A stretch of DNA of 64,000 bases from Bacilli bacterium (GCA_017404385.1 JAFRCK010000022.1:10674-74673), one strand, 5' to 3'; shown: positions 32,118 through 49,237, counted from the first letter of the stretch. Numbers and translations: made by a program. Notes: generated by a model not told the origin, from the sequence alone.

Positions 32118-32663
32118 ATGGAAATGATAGATGTATATAATGAAAATAATGAATTCTTAGGTTATTCAAAAACAAGAGATGAAGTACATGAAGAAAACTT
32201 ATTTCATAGACATGTATCTGCTTGGATAATGAATTATGAAGGTAAAATATTACTCCAACAACGTGCATTCACTAAGAAAAAGAATCCAGGAAAATGGGCA
32301 AAAACTGGTGGACATGTAGATGCTGGTGAATCATGCAATGATGCTTTAAAAAGAGAAATAAAAGAAGAAATAGGATTGAATATAAGTGATATAGAAGAAA
32401 TTAATGTTTTTAAAAGTGAAAATCCTAATTATTTTTCATATAATTATATAGTTTTTACAAATTTAAATGAAGAGGATTTTATATTGCAAAAAGAAGAAGT
32501 TAATTCTGTTAAGTATTATGATATAGAAGAATTAGAGAGTTATAAAAAAGACAATAATAAAGATTTTACTTTTTGTAAATGGAATGTTGATGATTTTTAT
32601 AATCAAATGAATATACTAAAAGAATATAGAAATAAAATAAAAGAACTTGGTCAAAAAAAGTAA
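32118..32663 (+). CDS. Nudix hydrolase
   Basis: Nudix box GGHVDAGESCNDALKREIKEEIG. Confidence 0.8.
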   Translation: MEMIDVYNENNEFLGYSKTRDEVHEENLFHRHVSAWIMNYEGKILLQQRAFTKKKNPGKWAKTGGHVDAGESCNDALKREIKEEIGLNISDIEEINVFKSENPNYFSYNYIVFTNLNEEDFILQKEEVNSVKYYDIEELESYKKDNNKDFTFCKWNVDDFYNQMNILKEYRNKIKELGQKK

Positions 32664-32670
32664 TGACTAA

Positions 32671-32700
32671 AGAATAAGTAGGAGTAATCCTACTTATTCT
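32671..32700 (+). terminator. 13-bp-stem hairpin (no T-run)
   Basis: AGAATAAGTAGGA-GTAA-TCCTACTTATTCT. Its core recurs at 43862-43880. Confidence 0.5.
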
Positions 32701-32739
32701 ATGTTATAATGAATATGGACTTAAAAAGAGGTGAATATA

Positions 32740-35112
32740 TTGGATTTTAAATATGATGCTTTTATAAGTTATAGGCACTGTGATTTAGATAAATTTGTAG
32801 CGGAAAATTTACATAAGATTTTAGAAACTTATGAATTACCTAAAAATGTTAAAGAAAAACTAGGTATAACAGGTAGAACAATTAGAAGAGTATTTAGAGA
32901 TCAGGATGAATTACCATTATCAAGTAATTTAGAAGATCCAATAATTGATTCATTAAAAAATTCTAAATACTTAATAGTTATTTGTTCACCAAGATTAAAA
33001 GATTCTTTATGGTGTAAAAAAGAAATAGAGACTTTTAAAAAACTAAGAGGTAGAAAAAATATATTTTGTGTATTAATTGAAGGTGAACCAAAAGATTCAT
33101 TTCCAGAAGAAGTACTTTATGATGAAGAAGAAAAAATATTAAAAAATGGTAAAAAGAAAAAAGAAAAAGTATTAGTAGAACCACTAGCGGCAGATGTTAG
33201 AGGAGAAACAAAAAAAGATGTATTGAAGAAATTAAAAGAAGAAAAACTTAGATTAATCGCACCAATGTATAATTTAGACTATGATGATTTAAAACAAAGG
33301 CATAAAATAAGAAGACAAAAAAGAATACTAATCATTTCATTAATAGCGGCATCATTTTTATTCTTACTAGCTCTTTATACATCTATTATGCTTATTAAGA
33401 TTAATTCACAAAAGAATACTTTAAGATTACATCAAGCAGAATCACTATCAACTAAATCTAAAGAATCATTAAAAAATGATAATAGATATGATGCGATTAA
33501 TTATTCATATCAAGCTTTAACTGAATTTGATGGAGTTAATATGCCCTATACATCAGAAGCTGAATATGAGTTAGTAGAAAGTTTAGGATTATATGATGTA
33601 GGATCTTCATATAAAAATATTTCTGAATTAAAAACAGATGGAGTTGCGACATTTATTAAAACTAGCGATAATAATGAATATGGTTTAGTATATGATGAAT
33701 CTGAAAAACTAACTTTATTTAATACTAAGACAATGAAAGTTATAGATAACTATGATTTAAATGGAACATTTGATGAAGAATCATTTTCATTCCTGGATAA
33801 TGATAGATTTGCCTATATAAATAAAGAAGGGAATATAAATATTATTTCTATTAAAGATGGTAAATTAATAAAAGAAATAGAAAAGAAAGATGAAAAATAT
33901 AAATCAGTTATAGGTAGTAAAGACTATTTATCATATATAGATAAAAAGAATGTATATGTTTATAATTTAAAAGAAGATAAAGTAGTAGGTAGTATTTCAA
34001 CAAACGATAAATTTATAGATGATTTATATTATTCTGATAATGATGAATATTTATTCGCAACTACTACAGATGATAGTTTTAATGTAGATGAAGAAGACTA
34101 TTTAGAAGTTCATGTAATAGAATTAAAAACTGCTAAAGAAATTAATTCCACTAGAATAGATGCTAGTTATGTATCAGGAATGTTAACTAAAAATGGTAAT
34201 CTTTATATGCTTTTAAATAGATCATATGGTACAGAGTTTAGTATGATTTCGGTATCATATAATTATACTTCTGGTGATACTAATTGGACTAGGATATTCG
34301 AAGGTAATTATGGTAGATTTATAACTAAATCATATCCAGAAGATATTAATCATATTGTAGTAGTTAATTATCAAACTGTTAATATTTTAGATGGTGATTC
34401 TGGAGAAGTAGTAGAAGTCTTTAATTTAGATGATGAAATAATAAATATATATTCAAATCTAAATAAAGAACTTTATCTAGCTTTCTTAAAAAATGGTTCT
34501 GTTAATTATCTAAGCATGGAAAGTAGAAAGAGTTATGAACTTCTAGGTAAATATGAATTTAATATAGATAATTATTCTAAAGTAGCGTTATCTAAAGATG
34601 GATTCTTATTAATACCTAATAATGAAAACAGAGTAGTATTATATGAAACAAAGTCAAATAAAGATATTAAAAGTGTAGATATGAAATTTGATTTTGTTAA
34701 AGATGATTCAATAAAAATAACTGATTATGATAAGATTAAAGAAGAATATGATATAAAAAATAAAAGCTTAGTAGAAAAAATATTTTATGATGATAAAAAA
34801 GAATTATTATTTGTAAATTATACTAATGAAGATTTAGTTATATATAATGTTAAAGATAAAAAACAATTAAACAAAATAGAAAAAATTGGTAAAGTAAATC
34901 ATTATTTTGGAAAAGATAAGTATGGTAGAATCTATATTGGAGATAATTCAAATTCATATATAATAGATAATTATGAAAAAGTAGGACACATAAAAGGATT
35001 AATAAAATTAGAAAAAGATAAAGTATATATTTCTAATGATGAGAAGTTCTATTCTATAAAGATTTATAATTTAAACGAAGTATTAAAAGAAGCCAAAGAT
35101 TATTTAAAATAA
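32740..35112 (+). CDS. TIR-domain protein with TM helix and large C-terminal beta-propeller-like domain
   Basis: N-terminal YDAFISYRH, LIVICSP and SLWCKKEIE (TIR motifs including the conserved Glu context). TM helix ILIISLIAASFLFLLALYTSIMLI at about aa 200. About 570 further residues carry recurring blade-like strands (VYVYNLKEDK, VVLYETKSNK, LVIYNVKDKK). Start is TTG at 32740 or GTG at 32731. Confidence 0.75.
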   Translation: MDFKYDAFISYRHCDLDKFVAENLHKILETYELPKNVKEKLGITGRTIRRVFRDQDELPLSSNLEDPIIDSLKNSKYLIVICSPRLKDSLWCKKEIETFKKLRGRKNIFCVLIEGEPKDSFPEEVLYDEEEKILKNGKKKKEKVLVEPLAADVRGETKKDVLKKLKEEKLRLIAPMYNLDYDDLKQRHKIRRQKRILIISLIAASFLFLLALYTSIMLIKINSQKNTLRLHQAESLSTKSKESLKNDNRYDAINYSYQALTEFDGVNMPYTSEAEYELVESLGLYDVGSSYKNISELKTDGVATFIKTSDNNEYGLVYDESEKLTLFNTKTMKVIDNYDLNGTFDEESFSFLDNDRFAYINKEGNINIISIKDGKLIKEIEKKDEKYKSVIGSKDYLSYIDKKNVYVYNLKEDKVVGSISTNDKFIDDLYYSDNDEYLFATTTDDSFNVDEEDYLEVHVIELKTAKEINSTRIDASYVSGMLTKNGNLYMLLNRSYGTEFSMISVSYNYTSGDTNWTRIFEGNYGRFITKSYPEDINHIVVVNYQTVNILDGDSGEVVEVFNLDDEIINIYSNLNKELYLAFLKNGSVNYLSMESRKSYELLGKYEFNIDNYSKVALSKDGFLLIPNNENRVVLYETKSNKDIKSVDMKFDFVKDDSIKITDYDKIKEEYDIKNKSLVEKIFYDDKKELLFVNYTNEDLVIYNVKDKKQLNKIEKIGKVNHYFGKDKYGRIYIGDNSNSYIIDNYEKVGHIKGLIKLEKDKVYISNDEKFYSIKIYNLNEVLKEAKDYLK

Positions 35113-35125
35113 AAAAGGAGGAAAT

Positions 35126-36100
35126 ATGAAAAAGAGATTTTTAATATTAATTTTATTAATAGTAGGATTATTTACTATAACTGGATGTGGTTGTAGTAAA
35201 AAAACAAATGAAGATACAAAAAATAAAAAGGAAATAATAACACCACTAATGTATAAAGTAACAAAAGAAGGAAGTAGTAATACAATTTATATACTTGGTA
35301 CAATTCATGCCGGAAGTTTAAAAAATACAGAATTTGCTAAATATGTAACTAAAGCATTTGATGAAAGTCATTATGTAGCCGCTGAAATTGACAATGAAGA
35401 AGACGAATCTTTAGATGAAGTTCTTGAACAATTAGAAAAATTCACATATGATGGGGATGATACTATTAAGAATCATATGTCGTCAGAAGAAAATTATAAT
35501 AAACTAATGAAATATGTAGAAGATAATAATTTAGAAATAGAATTAATAGATAAAGAAAAATTAAACTTAGAATACTATTCTAGGTCATTAACACAAGTTG
35601 TTATAGAAAAATCAGGTTTAACTGCTGAAGAAGGAATAGATGAATATTTTGTTAATATGGCTAAAAAAGAAAAAAAGAATTTCTTAGTTGTTGAAGGTAC
35701 TGAATTCCAATCAGAAGTATTAGCTAGTCTATCTGATAAATTTTATGAAAATATGATAATAAGTGCAATTGAAAATTTAGATGAACAAATAAAAGAATTA
35801 AAGGACTCTTTTGAAATTTGGAAAAAGGGTAATGAAAAAGAAATATGGAAAGATGATGGTTCATCAATAAAAGAAGAAGATAAATCTAAATATAGTGAAG
35901 AAGATATTAAGGCAGCAGAAGAATTTGACGAAAAAATATTATATTCTAGAAATATAACTATGACTGATAAATTAGAAGAATACTTTAAAGATAATAAAGA
36001 TGTATTTTATATGGTAGGACAAGATCATGTTATAGGTGATAGAGGAATAGTATCATTATTAAGACAAAGAGGATATACTGTAACAAAAATATCAAAATAA
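35126..36100 (+). CDS. TraB/GumN (TIKI-like) family lipoprotein
   Basis: Lipobox LFTITGC and the family N-terminal motif TIYILGTIHAG. Starts 13 nt after the TIR gene stop. Confidence 0.65.
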   Translation: MKKRFLILILLIVGLFTITGCGCSKKTNEDTKNKKEIITPLMYKVTKEGSSNTIYILGTIHAGSLKNTEFAKYVTKAFDESHYVAAEIDNEEDESLDEVLEQLEKFTYDGDDTIKNHMSSEENYNKLMKYVEDNNLEIELIDKEKLNLEYYSRSLTQVVIEKSGLTAEEGIDEYFVNMAKKEKKNFLVVEGTEFQSEVLASLSDKFYENMIISAIENLDEQIKELKDSFEIWKKGNEKEIWKDDGSSIKEEDKSKYSEEDIKAAEEFDEKILYSRNITMTDKLEEYFKDNKDVFYMVGQDHVIGDRGIVSLLRQRGYTVTKISK

Positions 36101-36104
36101 AAAG

Positions 36105-36129
36105 TTCTAACATTCGTTAGAATTTTTTT
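36105..36129 (+). terminator. rho-independent terminator
   Basis: TTCTAAC-ATTC-GTTAGAA followed by a T-run. Confidence 0.7.
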
Positions 36130-36180
36130 ATTATAAAATATGTTATAATAATCTTAGATTATTAAAAGGAGGAAAATAAT

Positions 36181-36480
36181 ATGTCTAAAGAAAGCGCAAA
36201 AAGTTTTGTTGATAAGTTTTATAATGATGATGAATTTATAAGAGAATTAACTTTAAAAGGTGGAGTTAATTCAAAAGCTAGTGAAGAAGAAAGATCAAAG
36301 TTACTAATGAAGGTTTCAAAGGAAATGGGATTTAATTTCACTGAAGAAGAATATAGTGATGCTGTTAAAAAGTATTTTGAAGGAAAAGGTGTTTGGACTG
36401 CTATAAAAACTTTTAGACATTTTAATAAAATAGCTAAAAAAGCAGAAAAAGAAAGAGAAAAGAATAAAAAGCATAATTAA
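36181..36480 (+). CDS. Nif11-domain-like small protein
   Basis: MSKESAKSFVDKFYNDDEFIRELT ... VSKEMGFNFTEEEY resembles the Nif11 N-terminal domain. Lys-rich tail, no Cys-rich core. Confidence 0.45.
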   Translation: MSKESAKSFVDKFYNDDEFIRELTLKGGVNSKASEEERSKLLMKVSKEMGFNFTEEEYSDAVKKYFEGKGVWTAIKTFRHFNKIAKKAEKEREKNKKHN

Positions 36481-36590: not shown

Positions 36591-37265
36591 ATGAAGGTAA
36601 TTAAACATGAAGACGAATTTGGATTAAGAGTATCTTTTCAAGAATTAGATAAACAATTTGATGTATCATTTGGTGGTAATTTAGATTTATATTGGACAAT
36701 TCGTTCAAAAAATGAGAATGATAGACATGAATTTATAATCACAAAAGAAAATTATGAAGTATATAGATTGTTTGAAGAATTATTTGATGATATTGAAAAT
36801 ATAAGAATATTTACTGAACCTACTATTCCTTCTTATATAGTAACTGAAGAAGAAAAACAAGATTATATTAAGGAACTAGAATGTGAAAAAAATAAATATA
36901 GATTATATAATTATTCAAATTATAATGAGTTATTTGATAAGGAGAATAGTACTATTACTTGGTATTCAGATGAAACTAATCATGAGGTTTCTAATATACT
37001 AAAAATAATAAAAGAAAAAGAATCTTTTAGATTAGAGTTTTCTATACAAGCACATAAAAGAGAATATGATAGAGATTTTAATTCTTTGAATTATATTCCT
37101 ATTAGATTTAGAAATTCTGGTAGTTCATATGAACCATTTAATGTAATATTTATGAGAATGTATGAAAAAATGAAACAAATTGATGATATTAATGATTATG
37201 GGCATCAAATTCATATTGAAGAATTCTTTTACAATAAAAATAAAACGAAAAAACTAACTAAATAA
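36591..37265 (+). CDS. cassette ORF 1, hypothetical protein
   Basis: 224-aa ORF bounded by R0 and R1. No motif recognised. Confidence 0.5.
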   Translation: MKVIKHEDEFGLRVSFQELDKQFDVSFGGNLDLYWTIRSKNENDRHEFIITKENYEVYRLFEELFDDIENIRIFTEPTIPSYIVTEEEKQDYIKELECEKNKYRLYNYSNYNELFDKENSTITWYSDETNHEVSNILKIIKEKESFRLEFSIQAHKREYDRDFNSLNYIPIRFRNSGSSYEPFNVIFMRMYEKMKQIDDINDYGHQIHIEEFFYNKNKTKKLTK

Positions 37266-37270
37266 TTTAA

Positions 37271-37502
37271 ATGACATATGACCAGGAAACTATATACTAA
37301 TAATTGATTACGGTTTATAGTAACTTTTGTAGAAATCCTTTATTTATAAAGCTTTGTAAAGATTAACATCTTGCATGTTTATACTAAAATATATAAAAAA
37401 TGATGATAATTAGTGAAAATAGAGTGATTTTAAGTAAAATCAGATTAGAAATTGACATAGTGAGAACGGTTAGTTAAGACCAGATGAAAGGAGATGAGAA
37501 TC
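37271..37502 (+). repeat. array repeat R1 (long form, two cores)
   Basis: Degenerate left module. Core TTGATTACGGTT at 37304 and second core GTGAGAACGGTT at 37460 (156 bp apart). Promoter-like module, and hairpin TGATTTT-AAGT-AAAATCA at 37425-37442. Confidence 0.75.
37363..37390 (+). promoter_or_regulatory. promoter-like element inside R1
   Basis: TTAACA-N16-TAAAAT. The same arrangement is found at the same offset in R2 (39292), R5 (41500, with ATAGCA as -35) and R6 (42311). Confidence 0.45.
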
Positions 37503-38540
37503 ATGGCAAATAATTTAGTAATTAGAAGCAGTAGTGCGGAGTTTTTGATATTTGAGAGACAAACACATGATATGGGAATTCAAGTTAGATTTGAAAATGG
37601 AGATTTATGGTTAACTCAAAAAGCTATGAGTGAATTATATGATTGTACTACTGATAATATTTCTTTACATTTAAAAAACATTTATAATGACTACGAACTT
37701 AATAAAAATTCAACTACTGAGGAATTCTCGGTAGTTCAAAAAGAAGGAAATAGAAAAGTAAAAAGAAATATATTATATTATAATTTAGATGCAGTCATTT
37801 CGGTTGGATATAGAGTTAATTCTGATAAAGCAATTCAATTTAGACGATGGGCAACGAATATATTAAAAGAGTTTTCCAAAAAAGGATATATTATTGACAA
37901 ACGAAGAATGGAAAATGGTGCATTTTTTGATGAGGATTATTATGATTCATTATTAGCTGAAATAAGAGAAATTAGATTATCAGAAAGAAGATTCTATCAA
38001 AAGATAACTGATATATATGCTACTAGTATAGATTATGATTCTAAAGCACCAACAACTATTAAATTTTTTAAAAAAGTTCAAAACAAAATGCATTATGCAG
38101 TATCTCATCAAACAGCAGCTGAAATAATATATAATCGTGCTGATTCAGAAAAAGATAATATGGGACTTACATCATGGAAGAATTCTCCAAATGGGAAAAT
38201 TTTAGAAACCGATGTTGTTATTGCTAAAAACTATTTATCTAAAGATGAATTAGAAAGTTTAGAGAGGATAGTTTCTGCATTTTTAGATTTAGCAGAGAAT
38301 AGAGCTAAAAGAAATATTCCAATGACAATGGAAGATTGGTCATCAAGAATTGATAAATATTTACTTGCTGATGATTTGGATATATTAAAAGATGCAGGAA
38401 AAATATCTCATGAAATAGCTTGTGATAAAGCATTATCTGAATTTGAAAAATATAGAATAAAACAGGATAAATTATATAAATCTGATTTTGATTTATTAAT
38501 AGAAGAAGGAATTTCATTTAAAAAAAATGATGAAATTTAA
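37503..38540 (+). CDS. RhuM-family protein
   Basis: VRFENGDLWLTQKAMSELYDCTTDNISLHLKNIY, YNLDAVISVGYRVNSDKAIQFRRWATNILKEF and SERRFYQKITDIYATSIDYD are characteristic of RhuM. The ATG at 37503 is better spaced from AAAGGAG than the ATG at 37494. Confidence 0.8.
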   Translation: MANNLVIRSSSAEFLIFERQTHDMGIQVRFENGDLWLTQKAMSELYDCTTDNISLHLKNIYNDYELNKNSTTEEFSVVQKEGNRKVKRNILYYNLDAVISVGYRVNSDKAIQFRRWATNILKEFSKKGYIIDKRRMENGAFFDEDYYDSLLAEIREIRLSERRFYQKITDIYATSIDYDSKAPTTIKFFKKVQNKMHYAVSHQTAAEIIYNRADSEKDNMGLTSWKNSPNGKILETDVVIAKNYLSKDELESLERIVSAFLDLAENRAKRNIPMTMEDWSSRIDKYLLADDLDILKDAGKISHEIACDKALSEFEKYRIKQDKLYKSDFDLLIEEGISFKKNDEI

Positions 38541-38618
38541 AATTAATTATAAGAATTACTTATAAGTTGAGGTTAAACTAACAAAAATAACTTGTATGTT
38601 GGAGATGATGAAGTAAAT

Positions 38619-39197
38619 ATGATATTGTATGTAACTAAGAAAACTAAAGAGAGATTAAATATTCCTATGATAGATGAATTAAGTGATATATCTAAAAATA
38701 ACGCATCAATAGTTTTAAATAATGAGGAAGACACGGAATTACTTAAATGGGGAATTAAAATCTTTTATATGGATAGAAGAAAATGTTTGCAAGCCGTCAA
38801 TTTTGCTTCAAAACTAACTATATATTTATTTGACATTCATAATGATAGTATTGAATATATTGGTGATGCAATGGCAAATTATATGTATCATATATATGAT
38901 AATGATGAAAAAATGACAAATTTATTAAACAGATTATTTAATGAACATTCACTTTGTGTTTTTTCTAATTTAACAGATAAAACAGCAATTTCAACTTTAA
39001 ATTATAATGAACGTTGCTATGTCAATACATATAGATTTTATGATTACATTGAAAATAATACATTAAAAACAATAGAAATAAATAAAGATGTTAATTTTGA
39101 CAATTTATTAACTGTAAAAATTAATGGTAAAAGAGAATATATAGTTCCAGGTGAATATTTTAAAGAACTATTAACAAATTATTATAAAAGGAGTTGA
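38619..39197 (+). CDS. hypothetical protein sharing a cassette with RhuM
   Basis: No array repeat separates it from the RhuM gene; only 51-78 nt containing the hairpin TTATAAG-AATTA-CTTATAA. Start is ATG at 38619 or TTG at 38592. The stop lies inside the R2 left module. Confidence 0.5.
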   Translation: MILYVTKKTKERLNIPMIDELSDISKNNASIVLNNEEDTELLKWGIKIFYMDRRKCLQAVNFASKLTIYLFDIHNDSIEYIGDAMANYMYHIYDNDEKMTNLLNRLFNEHSLCVFSNLTDKTAISTLNYNERCYVNTYRFYDYIENNTLKTIEINKDVNFDNLLTVKINGKREYIVPGEYFKELLTNYYKRS

Positions 39198-39428
39198 TCC
39201 AAATGAATGAAAGTAAAACTAATATAAATTGGTTGATTACGATTTATTTAACCCCTTTAAGAAATCCTTTATTTACAAGGCTTTTCGAGAATTAACATCT
39301 TACATGTTTTATATAAAAATACTTAAAAATTGATGAAAATTAGTAAAAAAGGCTATTTTTAATTAAAAATAAGGTGGAAATTACTAAGGTGATTACACCT
39401 TTTAACTAGATAAAATGAGGTGATTAGA
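39187..39428 (+). repeat. array repeat R2 (long form)
   Basis: AAAGGAG-N9-ATGAATGAAAGTAAAACTAATATAAATTGGTTGATTAC. Cores at 39233 and 39389 (156 bp apart). TTAACA-N16-TAAAAA at 39292-39319. Palindrome TTTTTAATTAAAAA at 39356-39369. Confidence 0.8.
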
Positions 39429-40121
39429 ATGTATTTATATAAGAAAAATGATAAGTCAATTACTATTTATTCTTTTGTTCCTAATAAAGAAGAATTGATT
39501 AAATTAAAAAAAAGGTATCTAGAAGATATAAAAAGTGTAATTCTTCATATTAATGATAATGACACAGAGGAATTATTGTTTAGTAGTCCAACTATTATGT
39601 TTTATGCTTTAGATAGAAAAGAAACTAATGGTAAGATAACATACATAGAGGAAGAAAAAAATGATAAAAATATTTCTAGGTATATTAATGGAGAATTTGA
39701 TTCTTTAGATCCTTTATGTATTATTGGTGATACGGTTAATAAAAAATCTTCTTATAGTGGCGAATTGTATAATTGTGATAGCGCTTTACTATTTACTGGT
39801 GGTTATTATTACAATAATGAATTTATAACTAATGATGGAATATTATTAACCGGATATTTAGCAGATTTTCAACCATTATTAAGTAGTGATATAAGTAATG
39901 TTCTTTTTCCAGATACTTTTAGATATTTAAGTGATGAAATAATAGATTCCTTAAAAATATTTAGTTGTAAAAAAGAACGCATAATAAAATTGGATGATTT
40001 AAAATTTATGCAAGAACATGGACTAATTCAAATTAATGATAGTCTTCAAGATACTTTTGAAAAAAGTGAAGAAGTTTTAAATAGTTATAATAAAGTTAAA
40101 AAGTTAACTCAAAAAATGTAG
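39429..40121 (+). CDS. cassette ORF, hypothetical protein
   Basis: The ATG at 39429 is 6 nt after GAGGTG. No motif recognised. Confidence 0.5.
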   Translation: MYLYKKNDKSITIYSFVPNKEELIKLKKRYLEDIKSVILHINDNDTEELLFSSPTIMFYALDRKETNGKITYIEEEKNDKNISRYINGEFDSLDPLCIIGDTVNKKSSYSGELYNCDSALLFTGGYYYNNEFITNDGILLTGYLADFQPLLSSDISNVLFPDTFRYLSDEIIDSLKIFSCKKERIIKLDDLKFMQEHGLIQINDSLQDTFEKSEEVLNSYNKVKKLTQKM

Positions 40122-40141
40122 ATATAAAGCAGATGACTATT

Positions 40142-40216
40142 ATGAATGAAAATAAAACTAATATAAATCGGTTGAGAACAATTTAGTCAAGACTAGTTAA
40201 AAAAGAGGTGAATAAC
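40142..40216 (+). repeat. array repeat R3 (short form, one core)
   Basis: ATGAATGAAAATAAAACTAATATAAATCGGTTGAGAACAATTTAGTCAAGAC runs directly into the RBS AGAGGTG. Confidence 0.8.
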
Positions 40217-40840
40217 ATGAGTTTTAAAGAAGAAATAAATGAATTAGAATTATTAAGATTTGAAAGTGATTATATTATAAAAAAAGGGAATCTTCCTATT
40301 CTTTTTACTGCACCTCATACTATGAAACAAATAAGAGAAGATGGTTGTGAAAAATTAAGCGAACCATATACAAAAGCTATAGCTTTATATTTAAATAAGC
40401 ATTTTAATGTTAACTGTATGATTAAAATAAATGATACTGGGTTAGATGCTAATAGAAATCCAAGAGATGAATTTAAAACAGAATTGCTTAGATTTATAAA
40501 AGATAATAATATTAAATTAGTAATAGATCTACATGGTTCAAAAAAATCACGAGACTTTGATATCGAGTTTGGAACACTTAATAATTTATCCGCAGATTTT
40601 TCTACTATAAAAGAATTAGAAGAAGCATTTAATGAAAATGGCATTTCTAATATAATATATAATGACCCTTTTAAAGGAGGCGCTATTACTGAATATGTTT
40701 ATGGTTTAAAAGATGTAGATGTTATTCAAGTAGAAATAAATGGTAGATATAGAGATTATAATAATTTAGAAGAATTAGAAAAACTAATAAAAAGTCTTGA
40801 AAATTTTATAAAACAATATAAAGAATATATAAATAGATAG
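40217..40840 (+). CDS. cassette ORF, possible N-formylglutamate-amidohydrolase-fold protein
   Basis: FTAPHT near the N-terminus and VIDLHGS in the middle loosely resemble FGase-family motifs. Weak call. Confidence 0.3.
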   Translation: MSFKEEINELELLRFESDYIIKKGNLPILFTAPHTMKQIREDGCEKLSEPYTKAIALYLNKHFNVNCMIKINDTGLDANRNPRDEFKTELLRFIKDNNIKLVIDLHGSKKSRDFDIEFGTLNNLSADFSTIKELEEAFNENGISNIIYNDPFKGGAITEYVYGLKDVDVIQVEINGRYRDYNNLEELEKLIKSLENFIKQYKEYINR

Positions 40841-40852
40841 TAAGTGACTTTC

Positions 40853-40926
40853 ATGAACGAAAATAAAACTAATATAAATTGGTTGATAACAATTTAGTCA
40901 AGACCAAGAAAAAATGAGGTGATGTT
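40853..40926 (+). repeat. array repeat R4 (short form, one core)
   Basis: ATGAACGAAAATAAAACTAATATAAATTGGTTGATAACAATTTAGTCAAGACC, then the RBS TGAGGTGA. Confidence 0.8.
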
Positions 40927-41418
40927 ATGATTAAATTATTTGATAGTAATATGAATGAAGTGACTATCAAAAGAGAAATGTATCAATGGGATATTTTTCC
41001 ACTTGACAGCTTTTCCGCTTTCGGGTTTGTTATGAATAGTGAATATTTTCAAACAAGTGAACATGCGTTTCAATATTTAAAGTTTGTTGATACCAATAAA
41101 GAGATAGCTAATAAAATTAAAGAATCATTTTCACCTAATGATGCAAGAAATATTGCTCATGAAAATAAAGAATATAGATTATCTAATTGGTCAGATGTTA
41201 AGTATCAAAATATGGAAAAAATTTTAAGATTAAAAGTAGAACAGAATCCTATTGTAAAAGATGTACTTCTAAATACAAAAGATTATATAATTGTTGAAAA
41301 TTGTATTGATGAAGATACTGATTGGGGATTAGATAGTAATAATCAAGGAGATAATAATTTAGGTAAAATTTGGATGAAAATCCGTGATGATATAAAAGGA
41401 GTTGATCCAAATGAATGA
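40927..41418 (+). CDS. cassette ORF, NADAR (YbiA/DUF1768)-family protein
   Basis: FSAFGFVMNSEYFQTSEHAFQYLKF and the C-terminal NNLGKIWMKIRD match the NADAR domain signature. The stop lies inside the R5 left module. Confidence 0.6.
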   Translation: MIKLFDSNMNEVTIKREMYQWDIFPLDSFSAFGFVMNSEYFQTSEHAFQYLKFVDTNKEIANKIKESFSPNDARNIAHENKEYRLSNWSDVKYQNMEKILRLKVEQNPIVKDVLLNTKDYIIVENCIDEDTDWGLDSNNQGDNNLGKIWMKIRDDIKGVDPNE

Positions 41419-41640
41419 AAATAAAACTAATATAAACTGGTTGATTACAATTAATTTAAACCCCTTTGAAAAGTATTGTAAAATAAGGTAAAACTCAAAA
41501 TAGCATCTTACATGTTTTATATAAAATATGTTAAAATTGATAAAAATTAGTAAAAAATCACTATTTTTAAGTGAAAATAGTATAGGAATTAATAAGGCGA
41601 TTACAGAAGTTAAACCCCCTAGAAATTTGAGGTGAGATTC
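41395..41640 (+). repeat. array repeat R5 (long form)
   Basis: AAAGGAGTTGATCCAAATGAATGAAAATAAAACTAATATAAACTGGTTGATTAC. Cores TTGATTACAATTAATTTAAACCCC at 41441 and GCGATTACAGAAGTTAAACCCC at 41597 (156 bp apart). Hairpin TCACT-N7-AGTGA at 41558-41574. Confidence 0.8.
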
Positions 41641-42207
41641 ATGATATTACAGTATATTGATAATGAAGAATACAAGAATAAGATAGAAAAGTTATATTTA
41701 GAATCTTTTCCAGAAGAAGAAAGATTTCCATTTTGGATATTAGATGAATGTTCTAAAGAAGATAAGTCTGATTTATTAGCTGTATTAGATAATGATAAAT
41801 TTATTGGAATGTGTTATTTAGTTAATTGCAACGAGGTGTATTATCTTATGTATTTAGCAGTTGAACCAGAACTTAGAAGTCAAAATTATGGTTCTCAAAT
41901 ACTAATGGATTTAAAAGACAAATATAAAACATTATTTTTATCCATTGATGAACCTATAGATGATTTAAGTATAAGACGTAAAAACTTTTATTTAAGAAAT
42001 GGATTTTATGATACTAACAAGTATTACGAAGATACAGGTGTTAATTATGAAGTATTATGCACAAATCCTGAATATGAAATAACAAATGATAATATGAAAA
42101 TGAGATATATTAATATGACAAATAATCCTGAATTATCTAATGTAATAGCAAATACATTTAATGCAGATTTTGTTAATTTAAGAGATAAGAATAAACACTT
42201 AAAATAA
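41641..42207 (+). CDS. cassette ORF, GNAT-family N-acetyltransferase
   Basis: LAVEPELRSQNYGSQILMDL (acetyl-CoA binding Q/R-x-x-G-x-G/A) and the later YLRNGF. Confidence 0.65.
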   Translation: MILQYIDNEEYKNKIEKLYLESFPEEERFPFWILDECSKEDKSDLLAVLDNDKFIGMCYLVNCNEVYYLMYLAVEPELRSQNYGSQILMDLKDKYKTLFLSIDEPIDDLSIRRKNFYLRNGFYDTNKYYEDTGVNYEVLCTNPEYEITNDNMKMRYINMTNNPELSNVIANTFNADFVNLRDKNKHLK

Positions 42208-42441
42208 AGGAGTTGAGTGGGATGAATGAAAATAAAACGAATATCAATTGGTTGATTACGGTTTTTCGTAACTTTTGGAGAAAGCCTTTATTTATAAGAC
42301 TTTGTGAGAATTAACATCTTGCATGTTTATGATAAAATATAATAAAAATTGATAAAAGATAGTATAAAAAGACTAAAATAAGTTAAAAAAAGTATAGGAA
42401 TTACGATATTGATTACGCTAGTAAAAGAGGAGTGAAATAAT
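42206..42441 (+). repeat. array repeat R6 (long form)
   Basis: AAAGGAG-N9-ATGAATGAAAATAAAACGAATATCAATTGGTTGATTAC. Cores at 42252 and 42409 (157 bp apart). Confidence 0.8.
42311..42338 (+). promoter_or_regulatory. promoter-like element inside R6
   Basis: TTAACA-N16-TAAAAT with an extended -10 TG (TGATAAAAT). The 30-codon mini-ORF starting at 42222 stops at the TAA inside this -35 hexamer. Confidence 0.45.
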
Positions 42442-43032
42442 ATGAATTATGAAAGGGAAATAACTGTAGAAGTTTGTGTTGATTTAAGCAGTTTAATTAA
42501 AATACTTGAAGAAAATGGCTTTGAATTAAAAGAAGTTTATGATTTAAATGATATATATTTAATTAATAAGAATGATAAGGAAGATGATTACTTATCAATG
42601 TTAAACAAATGTGTTTTAATTAGAGATATTATTGAAGAAGATAAAGAAACTAAATTGTTAACTTATAAATATAAAGAGTATAATGAAAATAAAGAAATTA
42701 CAAAACAAGGAAAAGTAAAAGTAAAAATTGACGATATCAACAATTCTAAATTATTATTTGAAAAATTAGGCTTTGAGGAGTTAATTAGAATAAATGACCA
42801 TATGCTTGTATACGCAACAGATAAAGATGAATTGGTTATTCAAAATGTAAATGGTAAGCATATTTATATTGAATTAGAAGATAAATGTAATTATGCAAAT
42901 AGATTTTATAATTCTATAGATGAGATGAAAAAAGTAATTACTGATAATAATATTCCAATTAAGAATAATGATTTTTTCGTTAAAAAGGCTGAAATTGAAT
43001 TACAAGAAACTTATAATAAAGTAGGTGAATAG
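42442..43032 (+). CDS. cassette ORF, CYTH-like (class IV adenylate cyclase / triphosphate tunnel) protein
   Basis: N-terminal EREITVEV (ExExK-like strand), KHIYIELED near the C-terminus, and a length of about 195 aa fit CYTH/CyaB-like proteins. Moderate-to-weak call. Confidence 0.4.
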   Translation: MNYEREITVEVCVDLSSLIKILEENGFELKEVYDLNDIYLINKNDKEDDYLSMLNKCVLIRDIIEEDKETKLLTYKYKEYNENKEITKQGKVKVKIDDINNSKLLFEKLGFEELIRINDHMLVYATDKDELVIQNVNGKHIYIELEDKCNYANRFYNSIDEMKKVITDNNIPIKNNDFFVKKAEIELQETYNKVGE

Positions 43033-43034
43033 AT

Positions 43035-43300
43035 ATGAATAATGAAGAAAAAAACTTACAAAAAACTAATATAAATTGCTTGAGCATGATTTATCTAACC
43101 CCTTTAACAAATCCTTATAAAACAAGGAAAAACAAGAATTGAATCTTACATTTTTTTATAAAAAATGAGTAAAAATTAACAAAAAACACCAAAAATTATT
43201 AAAAATGGTGCTTTTTTTATATATTTTTAATAAGGTGATGTTTCCAGCTAACCCCATTGAAAAATAAGGGCTTTTTAACTTTTACTGAGTGTTCGGAAAA
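43035..43300 (+). repeat. array repeat R7 (long form, divergent subfamily)
   Basis: AAAACTAATATAAATTGCTTGAGCATGATTTATCTAACCCC. Second core GTGATGTTTCCAGCTAACCCC at 43235 (155 bp on). Hairpin CACCA-N14-TGGTG followed by a T-run at 43187-43218. The sequence after the second core resembles the start of another unit. Confidence 0.65.
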
Positions 43301-44296: not shown

Positions 44297-45175
44297 ATGA
44301 AAGAGGAAGTCGTAGAATTAAATGTTAAAGACATATCAGATTTTCCAAAGCATCCATTTAAAATAAACAATGATTTAAATTATGAAGAACTTAAAAACAG
44401 TATTATTGAAAGTGGAGTTCTTGTTCCTACTATTGTAAGAAAGAAAGAAGACGGAAAATACGAAATGTTATCTGGACATAGAAGAAAGAAAATTTGTGAA
44501 GAACAAGGTATTAAAAAAATACCATGTATTGTCAAAGATATTTCAGATGAGGAAGCTATCATATTAATGGTTGATTCTAATCTTCAAAGAGATAAGATAC
44601 TACCAAGTGAAAAAGCAATAGCTTATAAAATGAAATATGAAGCGATTAAACATCAAGGTAAAACTTCCGACCCAATGGGTTCGAAGTTATCAATCGAAGA
44701 TATTGTAAAAGACACAAATGATAGTGCTACTCAAATAAGAAGATATATAAGATTAAATTATTTAATTCCAGAATTATTACAGTTAGTAGATGATACAGTA
44801 TTAAAAGATAAACGAGCTACTTTAACAATGGGATTAAGACCAGCTGTAGAATTATCTTATTTATCTAAAGATGATCAAGAACTTGTTTATGAAGAAATAA
44901 CTTATGAAGATTTAACTCCAAGTCATGTACAAGCTAAAAAAATAAGAGAACTTGGAGAAAAAGGTGAATTAGACTCAGATGTACTTGAGTCTATTTTTTT
45001 GGAACCAAAACCCAATCAAAAAAATAGAATATCTTTAAATGAAGAAAGAATACGAAAAGTATTACCCAAAGATATTAAGGATTATAAAATTGAAGATTTT
45101 ATAATAAAAGCAATTGAGAGTTATTCTAAAACACTCTCTAATGAAAGGGGTGATTCATATGATTTAGATATTTAG
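44297..45175 (+). CDS. ParB/Srx-like nuclease-domain protein
   Basis: ParB N-terminal domain motifs HPFKI, VLVPTIV and MLSGHRRKKICEEQG. Confidence 0.7.
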   Translation: MKEEVVELNVKDISDFPKHPFKINNDLNYEELKNSIIESGVLVPTIVRKKEDGKYEMLSGHRRKKICEEQGIKKIPCIVKDISDEEAIILMVDSNLQRDKILPSEKAIAYKMKYEAIKHQGKTSDPMGSKLSIEDIVKDTNDSATQIRRYIRLNYLIPELLQLVDDTVLKDKRATLTMGLRPAVELSYLSKDDQELVYEEITYEDLTPSHVQAKKIRELGEKGELDSDVLESIFLEPKPNQKNRISLNEERIRKVLPKDIKDYKIEDFIIKAIESYSKTLSNERGDSYDLDI

Positions 45176-45230
45176 CACCCTACAATAATTATTTTGTTTC
45201 TGATAGGATTTATGTAAGAGGTGAAGAAGA

Positions 45231-45854
45231 ATGAAAAAAGTTATTATTAGCTTAATCATTTTATTTCTTATTGCTTCAGGATTCTTAACTTATAAATTTA
45301 TATTTATGAGAAATAAAGATGAAAAAGAGCCAGTAGTTGAATCTACAGTTATTGAATCTAAAGTTGATTCAAAAGAAATGGAGGAAGAAGAAAATGAACC
45401 TATTACAGAAATTATTGAAAACGATAATAATATTGTTAAAGACAACAGCATTAATGACAATAATGCTAATTCGAACAATATGGAGAGCAATACTGTTCGT
45501 AACTCTAATGTCGTAAAAGAAAATACAACAACTAATAATGTTAAAAAGGAAGAACCTAAACAAGAATCTGCTCAAGTACAACAACCAGTAGTACAACCTG
45601 AACCAGAACCACCAAAACATGAACCAACAGCATGGGAAAGTTTAGGAATAAGTGAATATGATTATTATCATTCACCAATGTGGAGTTGGGCTAGAGTTGA
45701 TTATAAAATAGAAGATTATGGATCATTTGAAGCAACACATCAAGCTTGTATTGATGCTGGATATCAATTAGAAGACATAATTAGTTTTTCATGTACAAAC
45801 ATTAATAGTTATTCGGGTGCTTATTTAGGAGATATGCTCAGAGTAAAAAAATAA
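45231..45854 (+). CDS. membrane-anchored protein with low-complexity linker
   Basis: N-terminal helix, N/E/V-rich and PVVQPEPEPP linker, Cys-containing C-terminal domain. Confidence 0.45.
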   Translation: MKKVIISLIILFLIASGFLTYKFIFMRNKDEKEPVVESTVIESKVDSKEMEEEENEPITEIIENDNNIVKDNSINDNNANSNNMESNTVRNSNVVKENTTTNNVKKEEPKQESAQVQQPVVQPEPEPPKHEPTAWESLGISEYDYYHSPMWSWARVDYKIEDYGSFEATHQACIDAGYQLEDIISFSCTNINSYSGAYLGDMLRVKK

Positions 45855-45870
45855 TGAAAGGAAAAACAAT

Positions 45871-48654
45871 ATGAAATCGAAATTATTTAAGTGTGCTATG
45901 ATGAGCATGCTTTTTTTATTGTCAATTTTTAATATTACAACAGTACATGCTGAAAAATATACTGGACAAGCTATATGGCCTAGTGAATATATCAGCAATA
46001 TTTATATTAAAAAAGTAAAACCAGATGGTTATACAAAGTATCAACAAGCAAGATTTATTAGAAGAAGTGAAGATAATAAATTTGTTTATTGTTTACAGCC
46101 ATATACAGATATTGATAATAATTTACCTTATTATGATGTAATAAGAGAGGATTATGAAAGAGTTTTAGGTTTTAGTGAAGAACAATGGGAAAGAATATCT
46201 TTACTAGCTTATTATGGATATCAATATGACCAAAATGGATATAATCATAATGATCAAAAATGGTATGTTATTACTCAAGTTATGATTTGGAGAACAACAA
46301 ATCCTGAATCTCAAATATTTTTCACAGATACTCTAAATGGAAATAGAATATCTAAGTTTGATAGTGAAATAGCAGAACTTGAAAGTTTAGTAGCAAATCA
46401 TTATAAAAGACCACAATTACAAAGTGGATTAGTTGTTCCTATTGGAAGTACAATTGAAGTTAATGATAGTAATAATGTATTAAGTAATTATAAAGTTACT
46501 TCTACAGATAAAGTGTCAGCTTCAATTAATGGAAATACTTTATCAGTAACTGCAAATAGTATTGGTGAAGGATCTATTACTTTTGAAAAGAAAGCAACTA
46601 AATATGAAATACCACCTATAGTATATTTTAGTGATCATTCACAAAATGTATTTAGAGTTGGTAACTTTGACCCAGTAGTAAGTAAATTTACTTTAAAGGT
46701 TATAGGCGGAAAAGTTACACCTAAGAAAGTTGATGTTGAAACAAGAACAAATACACCTCAAGGTGAAGCTAAATTAGGTGGAGCAGTATATGGAATATAT
46801 AAAGTAGATGGAACTAGAATAGGTTCTGTAACTACTAAAGATGATGGAGCTAATACTTCAGATTATTTACCAGAACTTGGTAGATTCTACTTATTAGAAG
46901 AACAACCATCAGAAGGATATTTATTAGATAGTAATAAATATTATTTTGAAATAACAGAGGATAATTTAAATCCTGAAGTACAAGTATTTGAACAAGTAAT
47001 CAAAAGAGATTTTGAATTTACTAAAGTATATGCTAGTGCTGAAACTCAAATAATGGAACCAGAAGTAGGTATTAAATTTGGAATCTATAATAATAAAAAT
47101 GAACTTGTTGAAGAAGTAACTACTGATTCACAAGGAGTATTTAGATTTACTTTACCATATGGGACTTATACTGTTAAACAATTAACTACAACTAAAGGTC
47201 ATGAAAAAATTGATGATTTTACTGTTGAAGTAAAAACTACTGGAGAAGTAGTTAAAAAAGTTATTTCAAATGCTCCAATTACTGCTAAGTTAAGAGTTGT
47301 TAAAATTGACTCTGAAACAAAAGAAGTTATTAAGAGAAGTAATATCAAATTTAAAATATTTGATGTTAAAAATAATGAATATGTATGTCAAACAATTACA
47401 TATCCAGCTAAAGAAACTATCTGTGTATGGGAAACAGACAAAGATGGTGAATTTACAACAGCTTATCCATTAATGACTGGAACTTATAGACTTGAAGAAG
47501 TTGATCAAGTAATTGATGGTTATTTATGGAATAGTCAATCACATGAATTTAGTATTGATGAAGATTCAAATTTAAGAACTGATTCAGAGTATGGAATTAT
47601 ATTCGATACTGATTTTGAAAACACTAGAGTAAAAGGTGAAATCAAAATTGAAAAAACTGGAGAAGTTGCTGAACTTACTGAAAATGGATTTGAATTTAAA
47701 AATCAACCATTAGAAGGAGTTAAATTTGGATTATATGCTTTAGATGATATTGTATGGAATGGTAAAACAATATATACAAAAGATTCTTTGGTATCTGAAA
47801 AACTAACTGATAGTGAAGGTAAAATTGTATTTGATGAATTATATCTTGGTAAGTATTATGTAAAAGAAATTGAAACATTAGATAATTATGTTTTAGATGA
47901 AAATACATATGAAGCTGAACTAGTATATAAAGATCAATATACACCAACTATCTTCTATTCAGAAGCTATCTTAAATGTATTAAAAACTGGTAAATTAGAA
48001 TTTACTAAAACTGATATATCTGAATCTAAAACACTTCCAAATACATTAATCGAAATTTATACAGAAGATGATGAACTAGTATTTAGTGGAAGAACTGATG
48101 AAGAAGGTAAAATTGTTATAGAAAGACTTCCTCAAGGAAAGTATTATATTCTTGAAAAGGAAGCCCCAGAAGGTTATAAACTTAATGAAGAAAAAATGCC
48201 ATTTGAAATAAAAGAAAATGGTGAAGTAGTTAAATCAACTATGAAAGATGAAGACATAACTGGAACACTTGAATTCACTAAATTAGATTTTTCAAATGAT
48301 AATCCACTTCCAAACACTTTAATTGAAATATACAATGCTGATACAGAAGAATTAGTATTCTCTGGAAGAACTGATGATAATGGAACTATTACTATAGAAA
48401 AACTAAAATATGGTAAATATTACATTTTAGAGAAAGAAGCACCAGAGGGATATGAATTAAATCCTGAAAGAATGTATTTTGAAATTAAGGAAGATGGAGA
48501 AATTGTTAAATCTATAATGAAAGATAAGCAAATAGTTAAAGTACCTAATACTGAAGCTAATGATTATAAAGAATTATTATTTAGTGGAATTACTTTACTA
48601 GTTTGTGGAGCAGGTGTGATTATTTATGGAATCAAAAATAAAAAGAAAAAATAA
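45871..48654 (+). CDS. surface adhesin: thioester domain plus CnaB/SpaA-type repeats, sortase-anchored
   Basis: Signal peptide. Thioester-domain motifs FVYCLQP (Cys codon at 46090) and ITQVMIW. Repeated units of the form TGxLEFTKxD...LPNTLIEIY...FSGRTD..G.I.IE.L..GKYYILEKEAPEGY. C-terminal VPNTEA followed by a hydrophobic helix and KNKKKK. Confidence 0.8.
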   Translation: MKSKLFKCAMMSMLFLLSIFNITTVHAEKYTGQAIWPSEYISNIYIKKVKPDGYTKYQQARFIRRSEDNKFVYCLQPYTDIDNNLPYYDVIREDYERVLGFSEEQWERISLLAYYGYQYDQNGYNHNDQKWYVITQVMIWRTTNPESQIFFTDTLNGNRISKFDSEIAELESLVANHYKRPQLQSGLVVPIGSTIEVNDSNNVLSNYKVTSTDKVSASINGNTLSVTANSIGEGSITFEKKATKYEIPPIVYFSDHSQNVFRVGNFDPVVSKFTLKVIGGKVTPKKVDVETRTNTPQGEAKLGGAVYGIYKVDGTRIGSVTTKDDGANTSDYLPELGRFYLLEEQPSEGYLLDSNKYYFEITEDNLNPEVQVFEQVIKRDFEFTKVYASAETQIMEPEVGIKFGIYNNKNELVEEVTTDSQGVFRFTLPYGTYTVKQLTTTKGHEKIDDFTVEVKTTGEVVKKVISNAPITAKLRVVKIDSETKEVIKRSNIKFKIFDVKNNEYVCQTITYPAKETICVWETDKDGEFTTAYPLMTGTYRLEEVDQVIDGYLWNSQSHEFSIDEDSNLRTDSEYGIIFDTDFENTRVKGEIKIEKTGEVAELTENGFEFKNQPLEGVKFGLYALDDIVWNGKTIYTKDSLVSEKLTDSEGKIVFDELYLGKYYVKEIETLDNYVLDENTYEAELVYKDQYTPTIFYSEAILNVLKTGKLEFTKTDISESKTLPNTLIEIYTEDDELVFSGRTDEEGKIVIERLPQGKYYILEKEAPEGYKLNEEKMPFEIKENGEVVKSTMKDEDITGTLEFTKLDFSNDNPLPNTLIEIYNADTEELVFSGRTDDNGTITIEKLKYGKYYILEKEAPEGYELNPERMYFEIKEDGEIVKSIMKDKQIVKVPNTEANDYKELLFSGITLLVCGAGVIIYGIKNKKKK

Positions 48655-49237
48655 GAGCTGGTTAATATTAATCGGCTCTTTAATCTTTCTTAGTGGTATT
48701 GGATTAATAACATATGATTATTTATCTAATAGAAAGATAGATGAAAAAGAAACTGAGTTATTAGAAGAATTCTATGAAATAGAAGACGACATTGAATCTA
48801 TAGAAGAACCTCAAGTTATAGAAGAAGTGAAAGAGCAAGTTAAAGTTAACTATATTGCTGTACTTAAAATTCCTAAAATTGGTTTAGAAAGAGGTTTAGT
48901 AGATCCAAATAGTTATCTTAATAATGTTAATTATAATTTAGAGTGGTTAGATGGTTCATCTATGCCAGATGAAGTTAATGGTAATGTAATTATTGCTGGA
49001 CATTCTGGTAGTGCTAGAATATCTTATTTTAGAAAATTAGATAGACTAGAAATAGGTGATGAAGCTTCTATTATATATAATGGTAAAACATATAATTATA
49101 AAGTAGTAGATATTTATGATATAGAGAAAACTGGAACAGCAGAAATAGTTAAAGAAAGAAATACTACAACTTTAACATTAATTACATGCAGACATAATAC
49201 TAATAGACAGATAGTTGTCATATTAAAACAATTATAA
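48626..49237 (+). CDS. sortase (element-encoded)
   Basis: N-terminal anchor, VIIAGHSG and the active site TLITCRH. Overlaps the adhesin gene end by 29 nt. Confidence 0.75.
   Translation: MESKIKRKNKSWLILIGSLIFLSGIGLITYDYLSNRKIDEKETELLEEFYEIEDDIESIEEPQVIEEVKEQVKVNYIAVLKIPKIGLERGLVDPNSYLNNVNYNLEWLDGSSMPDEVNGNVIIAGHSGSARISYFRKLDRLEIGDEASIIYNGKTYNYKVVDIYDIEKTGTAEIVKERNTTTLTLITCRHNTNRQIVVILKQL

Follow-up and report, generated by a model that had tools for sequence, protein, structure and literature searches.

In Mycobacterium tuberculosis PknD, a cytosolic N-terminal kinase is joined through one transmembrane helix to a C-terminal extracellular NHL propeller that serves as the sensor. To our knowledge, all characterised bacterial TIR enzymes sense events within the cell, and we know of no characterised bacterial TIR system that combines a cytosolic TIR domain, one transmembrane helix and an extracytoplasmic propeller. 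Here we describe a gene predicted to encode such a protein, which lies at positions 32740-35112 (+ strand) of a 64,000-nucleotide stretch of DNA from a Bacilli bacterium (GCA_017404385.1, JAFRCK010000022.1:10674-74673); the whole stretch is called the window below, and positions given without a locus name are counted from its first nucleotide. With moderate confidence, we read the 790-amino-acid product as a standalone, single-pass type-II receptor-enzyme that is lineage-conserved and chromosomally encoded in ruminant and other gut Firmicutes, a reading that includes the mechanism proposed below.

The cytosolic part of the protein begins with a TIR domain (amino acids 1–155, 32740..33204, + strand), which scores above the curated cut-offs of three Pfam models (TIR_2, 38.9 bits against 28; ThsB_TIR, 27.9 against 21.2; TIR, 22.6 against 21.3). 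For a structural model of residues 1–196 (predicted local distance difference test, pLDDT, 84.9; predicted template modelling score 0.81), the listed Foldseek matches in the PDB were essentially all TIR domains, from E = 1.6e-4, the best folds being those of SARM1, C. elegans TIR-1, the plant proteins RPP1, RUN1 and Roq1, and TLR1. Profile and fold therefore both place the domain in the TIR superfamily, as the initial annotation had proposed from short motifs, and the catalytic-glutamate motif of enzymatic TIRs, WxxxE, is present (W91, codon 33010-33012; E95, codon 33022-33024; both codons checked). We take this position to be that of the catalytic glutamate of plant TIRs; in the form found here, W91-C-K-K-E95, the glutamate also aligns with that of the WCxYEL motif in TLR2 and TLR15. 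In an alignment of 86 family members with 27–97% overall identity, E95 is conserved in 86/86 sequences and W91 in 84/86, while S10, R53, P84, P117 and R154 are each found in 86/86. On this sequence evidence, the domain is predicted to be of the catalytic type that cleaves nicotinamide adenine dinucleotide (NAD). An improbable alternative is that the protein is a non-enzymatic envelope or scaffold protein, in which the TIR domain acts, like those of animal TLRs and adaptors, only as a protein-protein assembly module joining the propeller, for example in a cell-wall or adhesion function, to conserved cytoplasmic machinery. A conserved protein partner of this kind is suggested by a cytosolic surface that hardly varies, the BB-loop region included, and the TIR domains of TLR1, TLR2 and TLR15 rank with the best matches in both sequence and fold; however, the invariance of the WxxxE glutamate and tryptophan at such divergence is as predicted for an active site.

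Behind the TIR domain, nearly invariant cytosolic juxtamembrane helices (amino acids 156–196, 33205..33327, + strand), ending KQRHKIRRQKR, lead into a single transmembrane helix (amino acids 197–219, LIISLIAASFLFLLALYTSIMLI, 33328..33396, + strand). This is the sole hydrophobic stretch of the protein (amino acids ~195–219) and its sole Kyte-Doolittle window above 1.6, and it falls within a modelled helix spanning residues 181–245. No N-terminal hydrophobic segment or signal sequence was found in the protein, in agreement with the initial annotation, which had also placed one helix near residue 200. Seven lysine or arginine residues occur in the 15 positions before the helix and two after it. 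All four cysteines of the window protein lie within the TIR domain, and across the Bacilli clade cysteine accounts for 2.0% of cytosolic residues compared to 0.07% of C-terminal residues, a 28-fold depletion. Because of the single hydrophobic segment, the 7:2 charge bias, the lack of a signal sequence and the cysteine contrast in the Bacilli clade, an N-in/C-out topology is supported as the predicted arrangement.

On the predicted outer side, a helical stalk (amino acids 220–285, 33397..33594, + strand) with family-wide conserved residues R249, A252, P269, T271, L278 and Y285 would carry a WD40-like beta-propeller ectodomain (amino acids 286–775), which is followed by a C-terminal helix (amino acids 776–790; both in 33595..35109, + strand). 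In the full-length AlphaFold model (pLDDT 87.5), the long helix 181–245 would cross the membrane and the stalk would extend to residue 285, with ~45 beta-strands between residues 290 and 774 at pLDDT ~90 and then the terminal helix. Foldseek matched this model to tandem WD40 double propellers (Pwp2, Utp21, COPB2, Gemin5 and Apaf-1) at E values of 1e-15 to 1e-17 over ~600 columns, and to 8-bladed propellers (ODA16 and Tako8) at template modelling scores of 0.66–0.79. Structure prediction, which the initial annotation had called for, thus bears out its ~570 residues of blade-like repeats, and the model depicts the ectodomain as a WD40-like fold of one or two propellers. Pfam beta-propeller matches remained below their cut-offs, the best being Beta-prop_THOC3 with 44.9 bits against 305; ANAPC4_WD40 reached 26.0 bits against 22.9, yet no single stretch passes alone. 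A propeller fold is therefore present without membership in any curated Pfam family.

Proteins with this architecture are common in gut bacteria, with homologues in more than 2,344 clusters, of which the best 120 are all full length at 57–97% identity; the few named cluster members are all called "TIR domain-containing protein [Bacilli bacterium]". When one genome per species was scanned, a relative was detected in at least 557 species. The carriers are, on the one hand, ruminant-gut metagenome-assembled genomes labelled Bacilli or Tenericutes (53–62% identity) and, on the other, very many Lachnospiraceae (27–38% identity, 800–1,130 amino acids), including Acetatifactor, Wujia, Butyrivibrio and the isolates AB2028 and NC2008. 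The window sequence itself was found in sheep, goat and bovine gut metagenomes, and the orthologous position is kept across relatives of 71–97% identity; overall, the family is widespread, with apparent vertical inheritance. When the ectodomain alone was searched against 1.84 billion representatives, only 205 clusters were returned, and a local hidden Markov model of the TIR half found the same TIR half in 114 of the 118 full-length ectodomain matches, so the propeller is essentially private to this TIR half. Four representative proteins (P0176, P0221, P0247 and P0303) share the stalk, propeller and transmembrane helix but lack the TIR domain, having just a short tail in the cytoplasm; they could be variants without this domain or the product of truncated gene calls.

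The two halves of the protein evolve at different rates. Mean identity to the window protein is 63% for the TIR part, 56% for the linker and 23% for the propeller, and dN/dS against five close orthologues is 0.05–0.13 for the TIR half and ~0.25 for the propeller. Both halves are under purifying selection, with the outer part 2–5 times freer. Some Lachnospiraceae carry tandem arrays of two or three paralogues (L024 5962-13487; L063 5968-13505; L040 3442-8460), whose ectodomains are 27–39% identical compared to 56–68% for the cytosolic halves.

Gene neighbourhoods were compared in loci L001–L089, which comprise 80 species-genome loci and nine loci giving three distant family contexts, at TIR identities of 27–77%. 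Neighbour clustering showed that in 51 of 83 loci the gene immediately upstream, also on the same strand, encodes a ~510-amino-acid DHH/DHHA1 protein, with gaps to the TIR gene mostly of -16 to +93 nucleotides. The arrangement was seen in Lachnospiraceae loci L016–L088 (for example, L061 4308-5849), and the DHH gene stays adjacent where all other neighbours differ (L022, L025, L028, L033, L035, L041, L054, L077, L080 and L088). The DHH-DHHA1 phosphoesterase is a conserved operon partner of the TIR gene in Lachnospiraceae. Its motifs (DxD, DHH and GGGH) and its nearest solved relatives (Rv2837c/CnpB, NrnA and TmPDE) mark it as a putative nanoRNA or (cyclic) dinucleotide phosphoesterase, which bears an extra C-terminal region of ~200 amino acids. 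Many Lachnospiraceae keep the wider order purH-DHH-TIR-glnS-DUF2225-GntR, an arrangement that suggests a core-genome segment passed on vertically. Such a core-like distribution in a housekeeping context would also suit the non-enzymatic scaffold described above; the operon link to a nucleotide phosphoesterase, however, points to a nucleotide product. We found no DHH homologue in the window or in the Bacilli-clade loci, where a consistent neighbour is also lacking; the window's own clade is thus without this partner. The literature searched in full text, including PMC7075850 and PMC8195603, holds no account of a TIR-transmembrane-propeller protein or of a TIR-DHH operon, which is not proof of absence.

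Near Bacilli-clade orthologues, genes for NUDIX, ADP-ribosylglycohydrolase (L004, L013), NADAR and SIR2 (L007-9) proteins recur. A NUDIX gene lies within ~4 kb in about 7 of 12 Bacilli-clade contexts, and a NADAR-domain gene (84 bits) is found in the window at 40927-41418, 5.8 kb downstream of the TIR gene. Locus L098 contains two NUDIX genes in 13 kb without a TIR gene.

In the mechanism that we propose, a ligand or surface event would cluster the ectodomains, and this clustering would let the TIR domains in the cytosol assemble head to tail, as TIR enzymes must for activity. The WxxxE site would then cleave NAD+, giving an ADP-ribose-derived signal or a lowered NAD+ level, and in Lachnospiraceae the DHH-DHHA1 phosphoesterase encoded in the same operon would probably turn over or process the nucleotide product. 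Past the identity of the domains, the predicted topology and the statistics of gene order, every mechanistic step is one that we infer. We hold only tentatively, as a possible but rather unlikely account, that the protein founds a transmembrane TIR signalling pathway of gut Firmicutes with a physiological, non-suicidal role, a bacterial parallel to Toll-like receptor logic that works by enzymatic TIR chemistry, in which the propeller senses an outside cue, an NAD-derived messenger is produced, and this messenger is removed by the DHH-DHHA1 protein in Lachnospiraceae and by other hydrolases in the Bacilli clade.

Several points weigh against the receptor-enzyme reading. The supposed NADase activity and ligand-driven clustering are carried over from other TIR proteins, and TIR domains are also able to act as non-enzymatic scaffolds. 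The turnover argument is borrowed from Lachnospiraceae, because the window's own clade is without the DHH gene. An enrichment of NAD- or ADP-ribose-related neighbours is unproven and only suggestive; it is not defensible, because the genomes are NUDIX-rich and the contexts are not independent. The depletion of cysteine in the ectodomain vanishes when Lachnospiraceae are included, and no gene for a signal receptor or an effector was found.

The main rival, which we regard as rather doubtful, is that the protein, acting without GumN, is a surface-sensing anti-phage or abortive protein, whose propeller detects adsorption or envelope damage and whose TIR domain depletes NAD+, so that growth stops. 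The catalytic type of the TIR domain would fit this role, as would the faster evolution of the ectodomain and the tandem Lachnospiraceae paralogues with their diverged ectodomains. The window gene also borders a variable cassette region with RhuM (PADLOC PDC-S05), DUF6933 (PADLOC PDC-S63) and NADAR genes, and PADLOC-DB v2 returned partial, weak matches in the TIR region (SAVED_TIR, 3.3e-7; PDC-S66, 1.9e-5); however, no model in that collection was matched over its full length, and no ThsA effector of Thoeris (SIR2-SLOG or Macro-TM) was found among the eight surrounding genes with Pfam and PADLOC. Family relatives were absent from viral contigs, and phage genomes gave no match. In a plasmid collection, BLAST matches covered the TIR part only, with one exception, a family member of 814 amino acids (L100 4983-7427, WP_167562754.1) on pNP243 of the cultured rumen bacterium Butyrivibrio fibrisolvens D1, where no DHH gene lies upstream of the TIR gene. 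This lone member resides on a 243-kb non-mobilizable secondary replicon, which, together with the absence of viral and phage copies, speaks against a mobile-element origin. The gene also keeps its chromosomal synteny among housekeeping genes over deep divergence, its TIR half is under very strong purifying selection, its propeller at ~0.25 gives no sign of domain-wide positive selection, and a phosphodiesterase partner suits signal turnover better than one-way NAD+ depletion. Taken together, the conserved synteny, the constraint on the TIR half, and the absence of phage copies, of copies on a mobilisable plasmid and of a PADLOC system match argue against a typical mobile defence gene. The conserved receptor-enzyme is therefore ranked first, with anti-phage sensing as its main rival, because of this synteny and constraint, the lack of a PADLOC system match and of phage copies, and the phosphodiesterase partner.

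The gene directly downstream of the TIR gene encodes a TraB/PrgY/GumN (TIKI-like) lipoprotein of 324 amino acids (35126-36100, + strand), referred to as GumN below, which matches PF01963 at E = 1.8e-47 (162.9 bits against 26.8) over profile positions 1–262 of 263. It has a lipobox (...ITGC, with Cys21) and the motifs GTIH at residue 58 and HVIG at residue 301. Between the TIR stop codon and the GumN start lie 13 nucleotides, containing AAAGGAGG, in which nothing folds, and the two genes are probably co-transcribed in the window; both the family and the spacing agree with the initial annotation. Behind GumN, an A/U-rich 13-bp hairpin with a U-run (36099-36128, + strand; dG -11.3, z -5.6) may act as a weak intrinsic terminator. 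A simple terminator scan flagged nothing in the region, and it misses this hairpin because only two of its pairs are G-C; the terminator proposed earlier at this point is thus present as a hairpin and U-tract, although in a weak form that such a scan leaves unflagged.

The next gene encodes a Nif11-like small protein of 99 amino acids (36181-36480, + strand), which scores 23.3 bits against the PF07862 cut-off of 23.8 and 21.8 against 32.3 for TIGR03798. Neither a Cys-rich core nor a C-terminal GG cleavage site is apparent on reading its sequence; the resemblance to Nif11 noted in the initial annotation is real, but falls below the Pfam and TIGR03798 thresholds. The 76 nucleotides at 36100-36175, within which lie the hairpin with its U-run and also a promoter-like TGTTATAAT element, are replaced by ~15 nucleotides in the contigs of X7 and X8, from ~97–98%-identical ruminant strains, and the gap between GumN and the Nif11-like gene is 14–29 nucleotides in loci L092 and L095. 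The two genes are therefore tightly coupled in these relatives, where the Nif11-like homologues after GumN share 74% (L092) and 67% (L095) identity with the window protein.

The initial annotation had cast GumN as a partner that processes or presents a ligand. In such a functional pair, the propeller of the TIR protein would receive a ligand, possibly the Nif11-like peptide, after its processing or presentation by the exported TIKI-like protease, an explanation that we consider very unlikely. The hairpin-free 13-nucleotide gap suggests co-transcription, and the set of TIR, GumN and Nif11-like genes is kept in three contexts with different flanks, namely the window, L092 (TIR 80%; order TIR-186aa-GumN-Nif11) and L095 (TIR 73%; order HTH-TIR-GumN-Nif11). 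The divergence of GumN (76–78%, tblastn) tracks that of the TIR protein there, and sheep, goat and bovine run contigs of ~97–98% identity cover the order TIR-GumN-Nif11-unk224 (unk224 being a 224-amino-acid protein described below). From the public run contigs, only long contig pieces were used, the AT-rich sequence being noisy.

These observations are set against the distribution of the family as a whole, in which tblastn found homologues of GumN and Nif11 in 0/89 of the first-sampled loci L001–L089. In L001 (TIR 77%), the upstream synteny is kept (ABC, 12TM, Metallophos, sortase, Exo_endo_phos, DUF5640 and NUDIX), while the 224-aa unknown, AAA_28, Lactamase_B and DHH genes lie downstream and GumN is absent, as it is from L093 (TIR 71%). 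A further locus, L090 (TIR 95% in protein and 97% in DNA), has the order NUDIX-TIR-unk224-RhuM-DUF6933. Breakpoints from blastn and the junction sequences showed that a 1,325-bp segment of the window (35118..36442), containing GumN and ~85 codons at the 5' end of the Nif11-like gene, is missing in L090, where the TIR gene is intact. The segment is bounded by an 8-nucleotide direct repeat, TAAAAAAG (35110-35117 and 36435-36442; L090 junction 3138-3152), and L090 retains the last 46 nucleotides of the Nif11-like gene; because the break falls between the two repeat copies and this remnant is left, the event was a deletion in L090. GumN is also far rarer than the TIR protein, with only 48 clusters at E<=1e-10 compared to >2,344, and its orthologues of 61–72% identity (tblastn) occur in unrelated contexts, adjoining an ABC transporter, a thioredoxin reductase with NUDIX, or a cation ATPase, with no TIR gene near. 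A metagenome scan with GumN gave one distant locus, L094, at 37% identity.

A conserved partnership with GumN or the Nif11-like protein is ruled out by the 0/89 loci, by the contexts from both sides and by the L090 deletion junction. GumN and the 99-amino-acid gene form a two-gene cassette, which became joined to the TIR gene within a single shallow subclade and has co-diverged with it there. The loss of this cassette left the TIR gene unharmed; the cassette is an accessory neighbour that the TIR protein does not need, and the pairing is a local accident of gene order. The survey of co-occurrence suggested in the initial annotation thus finds the pair only in the closest subclade: at the level of the family, conserved synteny is largely lacking, whereas the pair is kept in the window, L092, L095 and the ~97–98%-identical strains.

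On the upstream side of the TIR gene, an open reading frame listing opens the long frame at GTG 32731, giving 793 amino acids. The TTG at 32740 sits 6–7 nucleotides after the ribosome-binding site AAGAGGTG and gives 790 amino acids. Because of this placement, and because database orthologues (P0001 and P0002 among them) are 790 amino acids long and begin MDFKYDAF, TTG 32740 is the likely start, and the length and position given in the initial annotation are right. A NUDIX gene (32118-32663, + strand) precedes it, and past the NUDIX stop codon a strong hairpin lies between the two genes (32671..32700, + strand; RNA folding dG -20.8 kcal/mol, z -7.4), whose function as a terminator is uncertain because it is not followed by a U-tract. 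An extended -10-like element, TGTTATAAT (32702..32710, + strand), is a candidate for the TIR gene's own promoter as a consensus match read from the sequence, and the same element is also found upstream of the Nif11-like gene.

Every gene in the region is on the + strand, the G+C content is ~24%, and an Rfam scan of the window gave zero matches. After the Nif11-like gene, a gene at 36591-37265 (+ strand) encodes a 224-amino-acid protein that has no match in Pfam, NCBIfam or PADLOC. Its homologues adjoin the TIR gene in L001-3 and L090, lie further downstream in L011 and L012, and are upstream in L092 and L095; the protein is a locally conserved neighbour of the TIR gene in its closest relatives. 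RhuM (37494-38540, + strand) and DUF6933 (38592-39197, + strand) genes follow.

From 37304 to 43197, an intergenic repeat of ~160–250 nucleotides occurs in 5–7 same-orientation copies between successive + strand genes, which encode RhuM, DUF6933, a 233-aa unknown, FGase-like, NADAR and GNAT proteins and two unknowns. Full copies begin with an RBS-like AAAGGAG and a ~30-codon open reading frame (MNENKTNINWLITI...), have no match in Rfam, and are present also in L090, L011 and L012; the repeat has the appearance of an array of cassettes or of a leader that recurs. Further on, 44297-49237 contains genes for a ParB_N protein, a 927-amino-acid adhesin with a thioester domain (TED) and 6x SpaA, and a sortase, which suggests a Gram-positive conjugative element or adhesin island just past the cassette region. 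At this position, L001 has AAA_28, Lactamase_B, DHH, RsgA, RNase HII and TopoI genes.

Overall, the picture drawn in the initial annotation is partly supported: the architecture, with a TIR domain of apparently enzymatic type in a receptor-like protein, holds, and the GumN partnership is unsupported. If the receptor-enzyme reading is true, the family would couple TIR chemistry to the cell exterior, widening the known input range of TIR signalling, and would provide a bacterial case of TIR logic of the receptor type, in Lachnospiraceae and uncultured Bacilli that abound as commensals of the gut and rumen. The conserved TIR-DHH operon, in turn, offers a concrete way to find an NAD-derived messenger, possibly a new one, together with the enzyme that turns it over.

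Compared to known systems, the window protein shares with the Toll-like and IL-1 receptor family the plan of a single-pass receptor in which an ectodomain made of repeats faces outward and a TIR domain faces the cytosol, and three Toll-like receptors are among the best matches of its TIR domain, as noted above. It differs in that its TIR domain is N-terminal, in a type II orientation, that its ectodomain is a propeller and not built of leucine-rich repeats or immunoglobulin domains (no leucine-rich repeat profile matched), that the catalytic WxxxE glutamate, a characteristic of NADase TIRs, is retained, and that no adaptors are evident. The likeness is one of convergent logic, not orthology; the Toll-like-receptor-like logic put forward in the initial annotation stands in its order of cytosolic TIR domain, membrane helix and outside domain, but with inverted topology and another ectodomain.

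Among enzymatic TIRs (SARM1; RPP1, RUN1 and Roq1; AbTir, ThsB and SpbK), likeness is seen in the best structural matches, in the ThsB_TIR and TIR_2 scores above cut-off and in the glutamate of the same motif, and self-association would be the expected activation mechanism. Those proteins are soluble, cytosolic and respond to intracellular cues, in contrast to the membrane anchor and predicted extracytoplasmic sensor found here. Relative to Thoeris in particular, ThsB is short and soluble, whereas the window protein has 790 amino acids and is membrane-bound, with no ThsA-type effector adjacent. The lipoprotein resembles the TraB/PrgY/GumN family in its full-length Pfam match and its GTIH and HxxG motifs, but it is a lipoprotein form paired with a 99-amino-acid Nif11-like protein, and no evidence connects it with pheromone control, with conjugation or with the TIR protein. 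In the Lachnospiraceae, the TIR-DHH operon resembles the pairing of a signal maker with a degrader in second-messenger systems, such as c-di-AMP DacA with GdpP or CnpB, or the type III CRISPR cyclase with its ring nuclease; here the TIR signal is putative, the DHH protein carries an extra ~200 amino acids, and the window's clade is without it. The layout is the same as that of PknD-type receptor kinases, with a TIR domain as output in place of a Ser/Thr kinase and a propeller of another family as the putative sensor.

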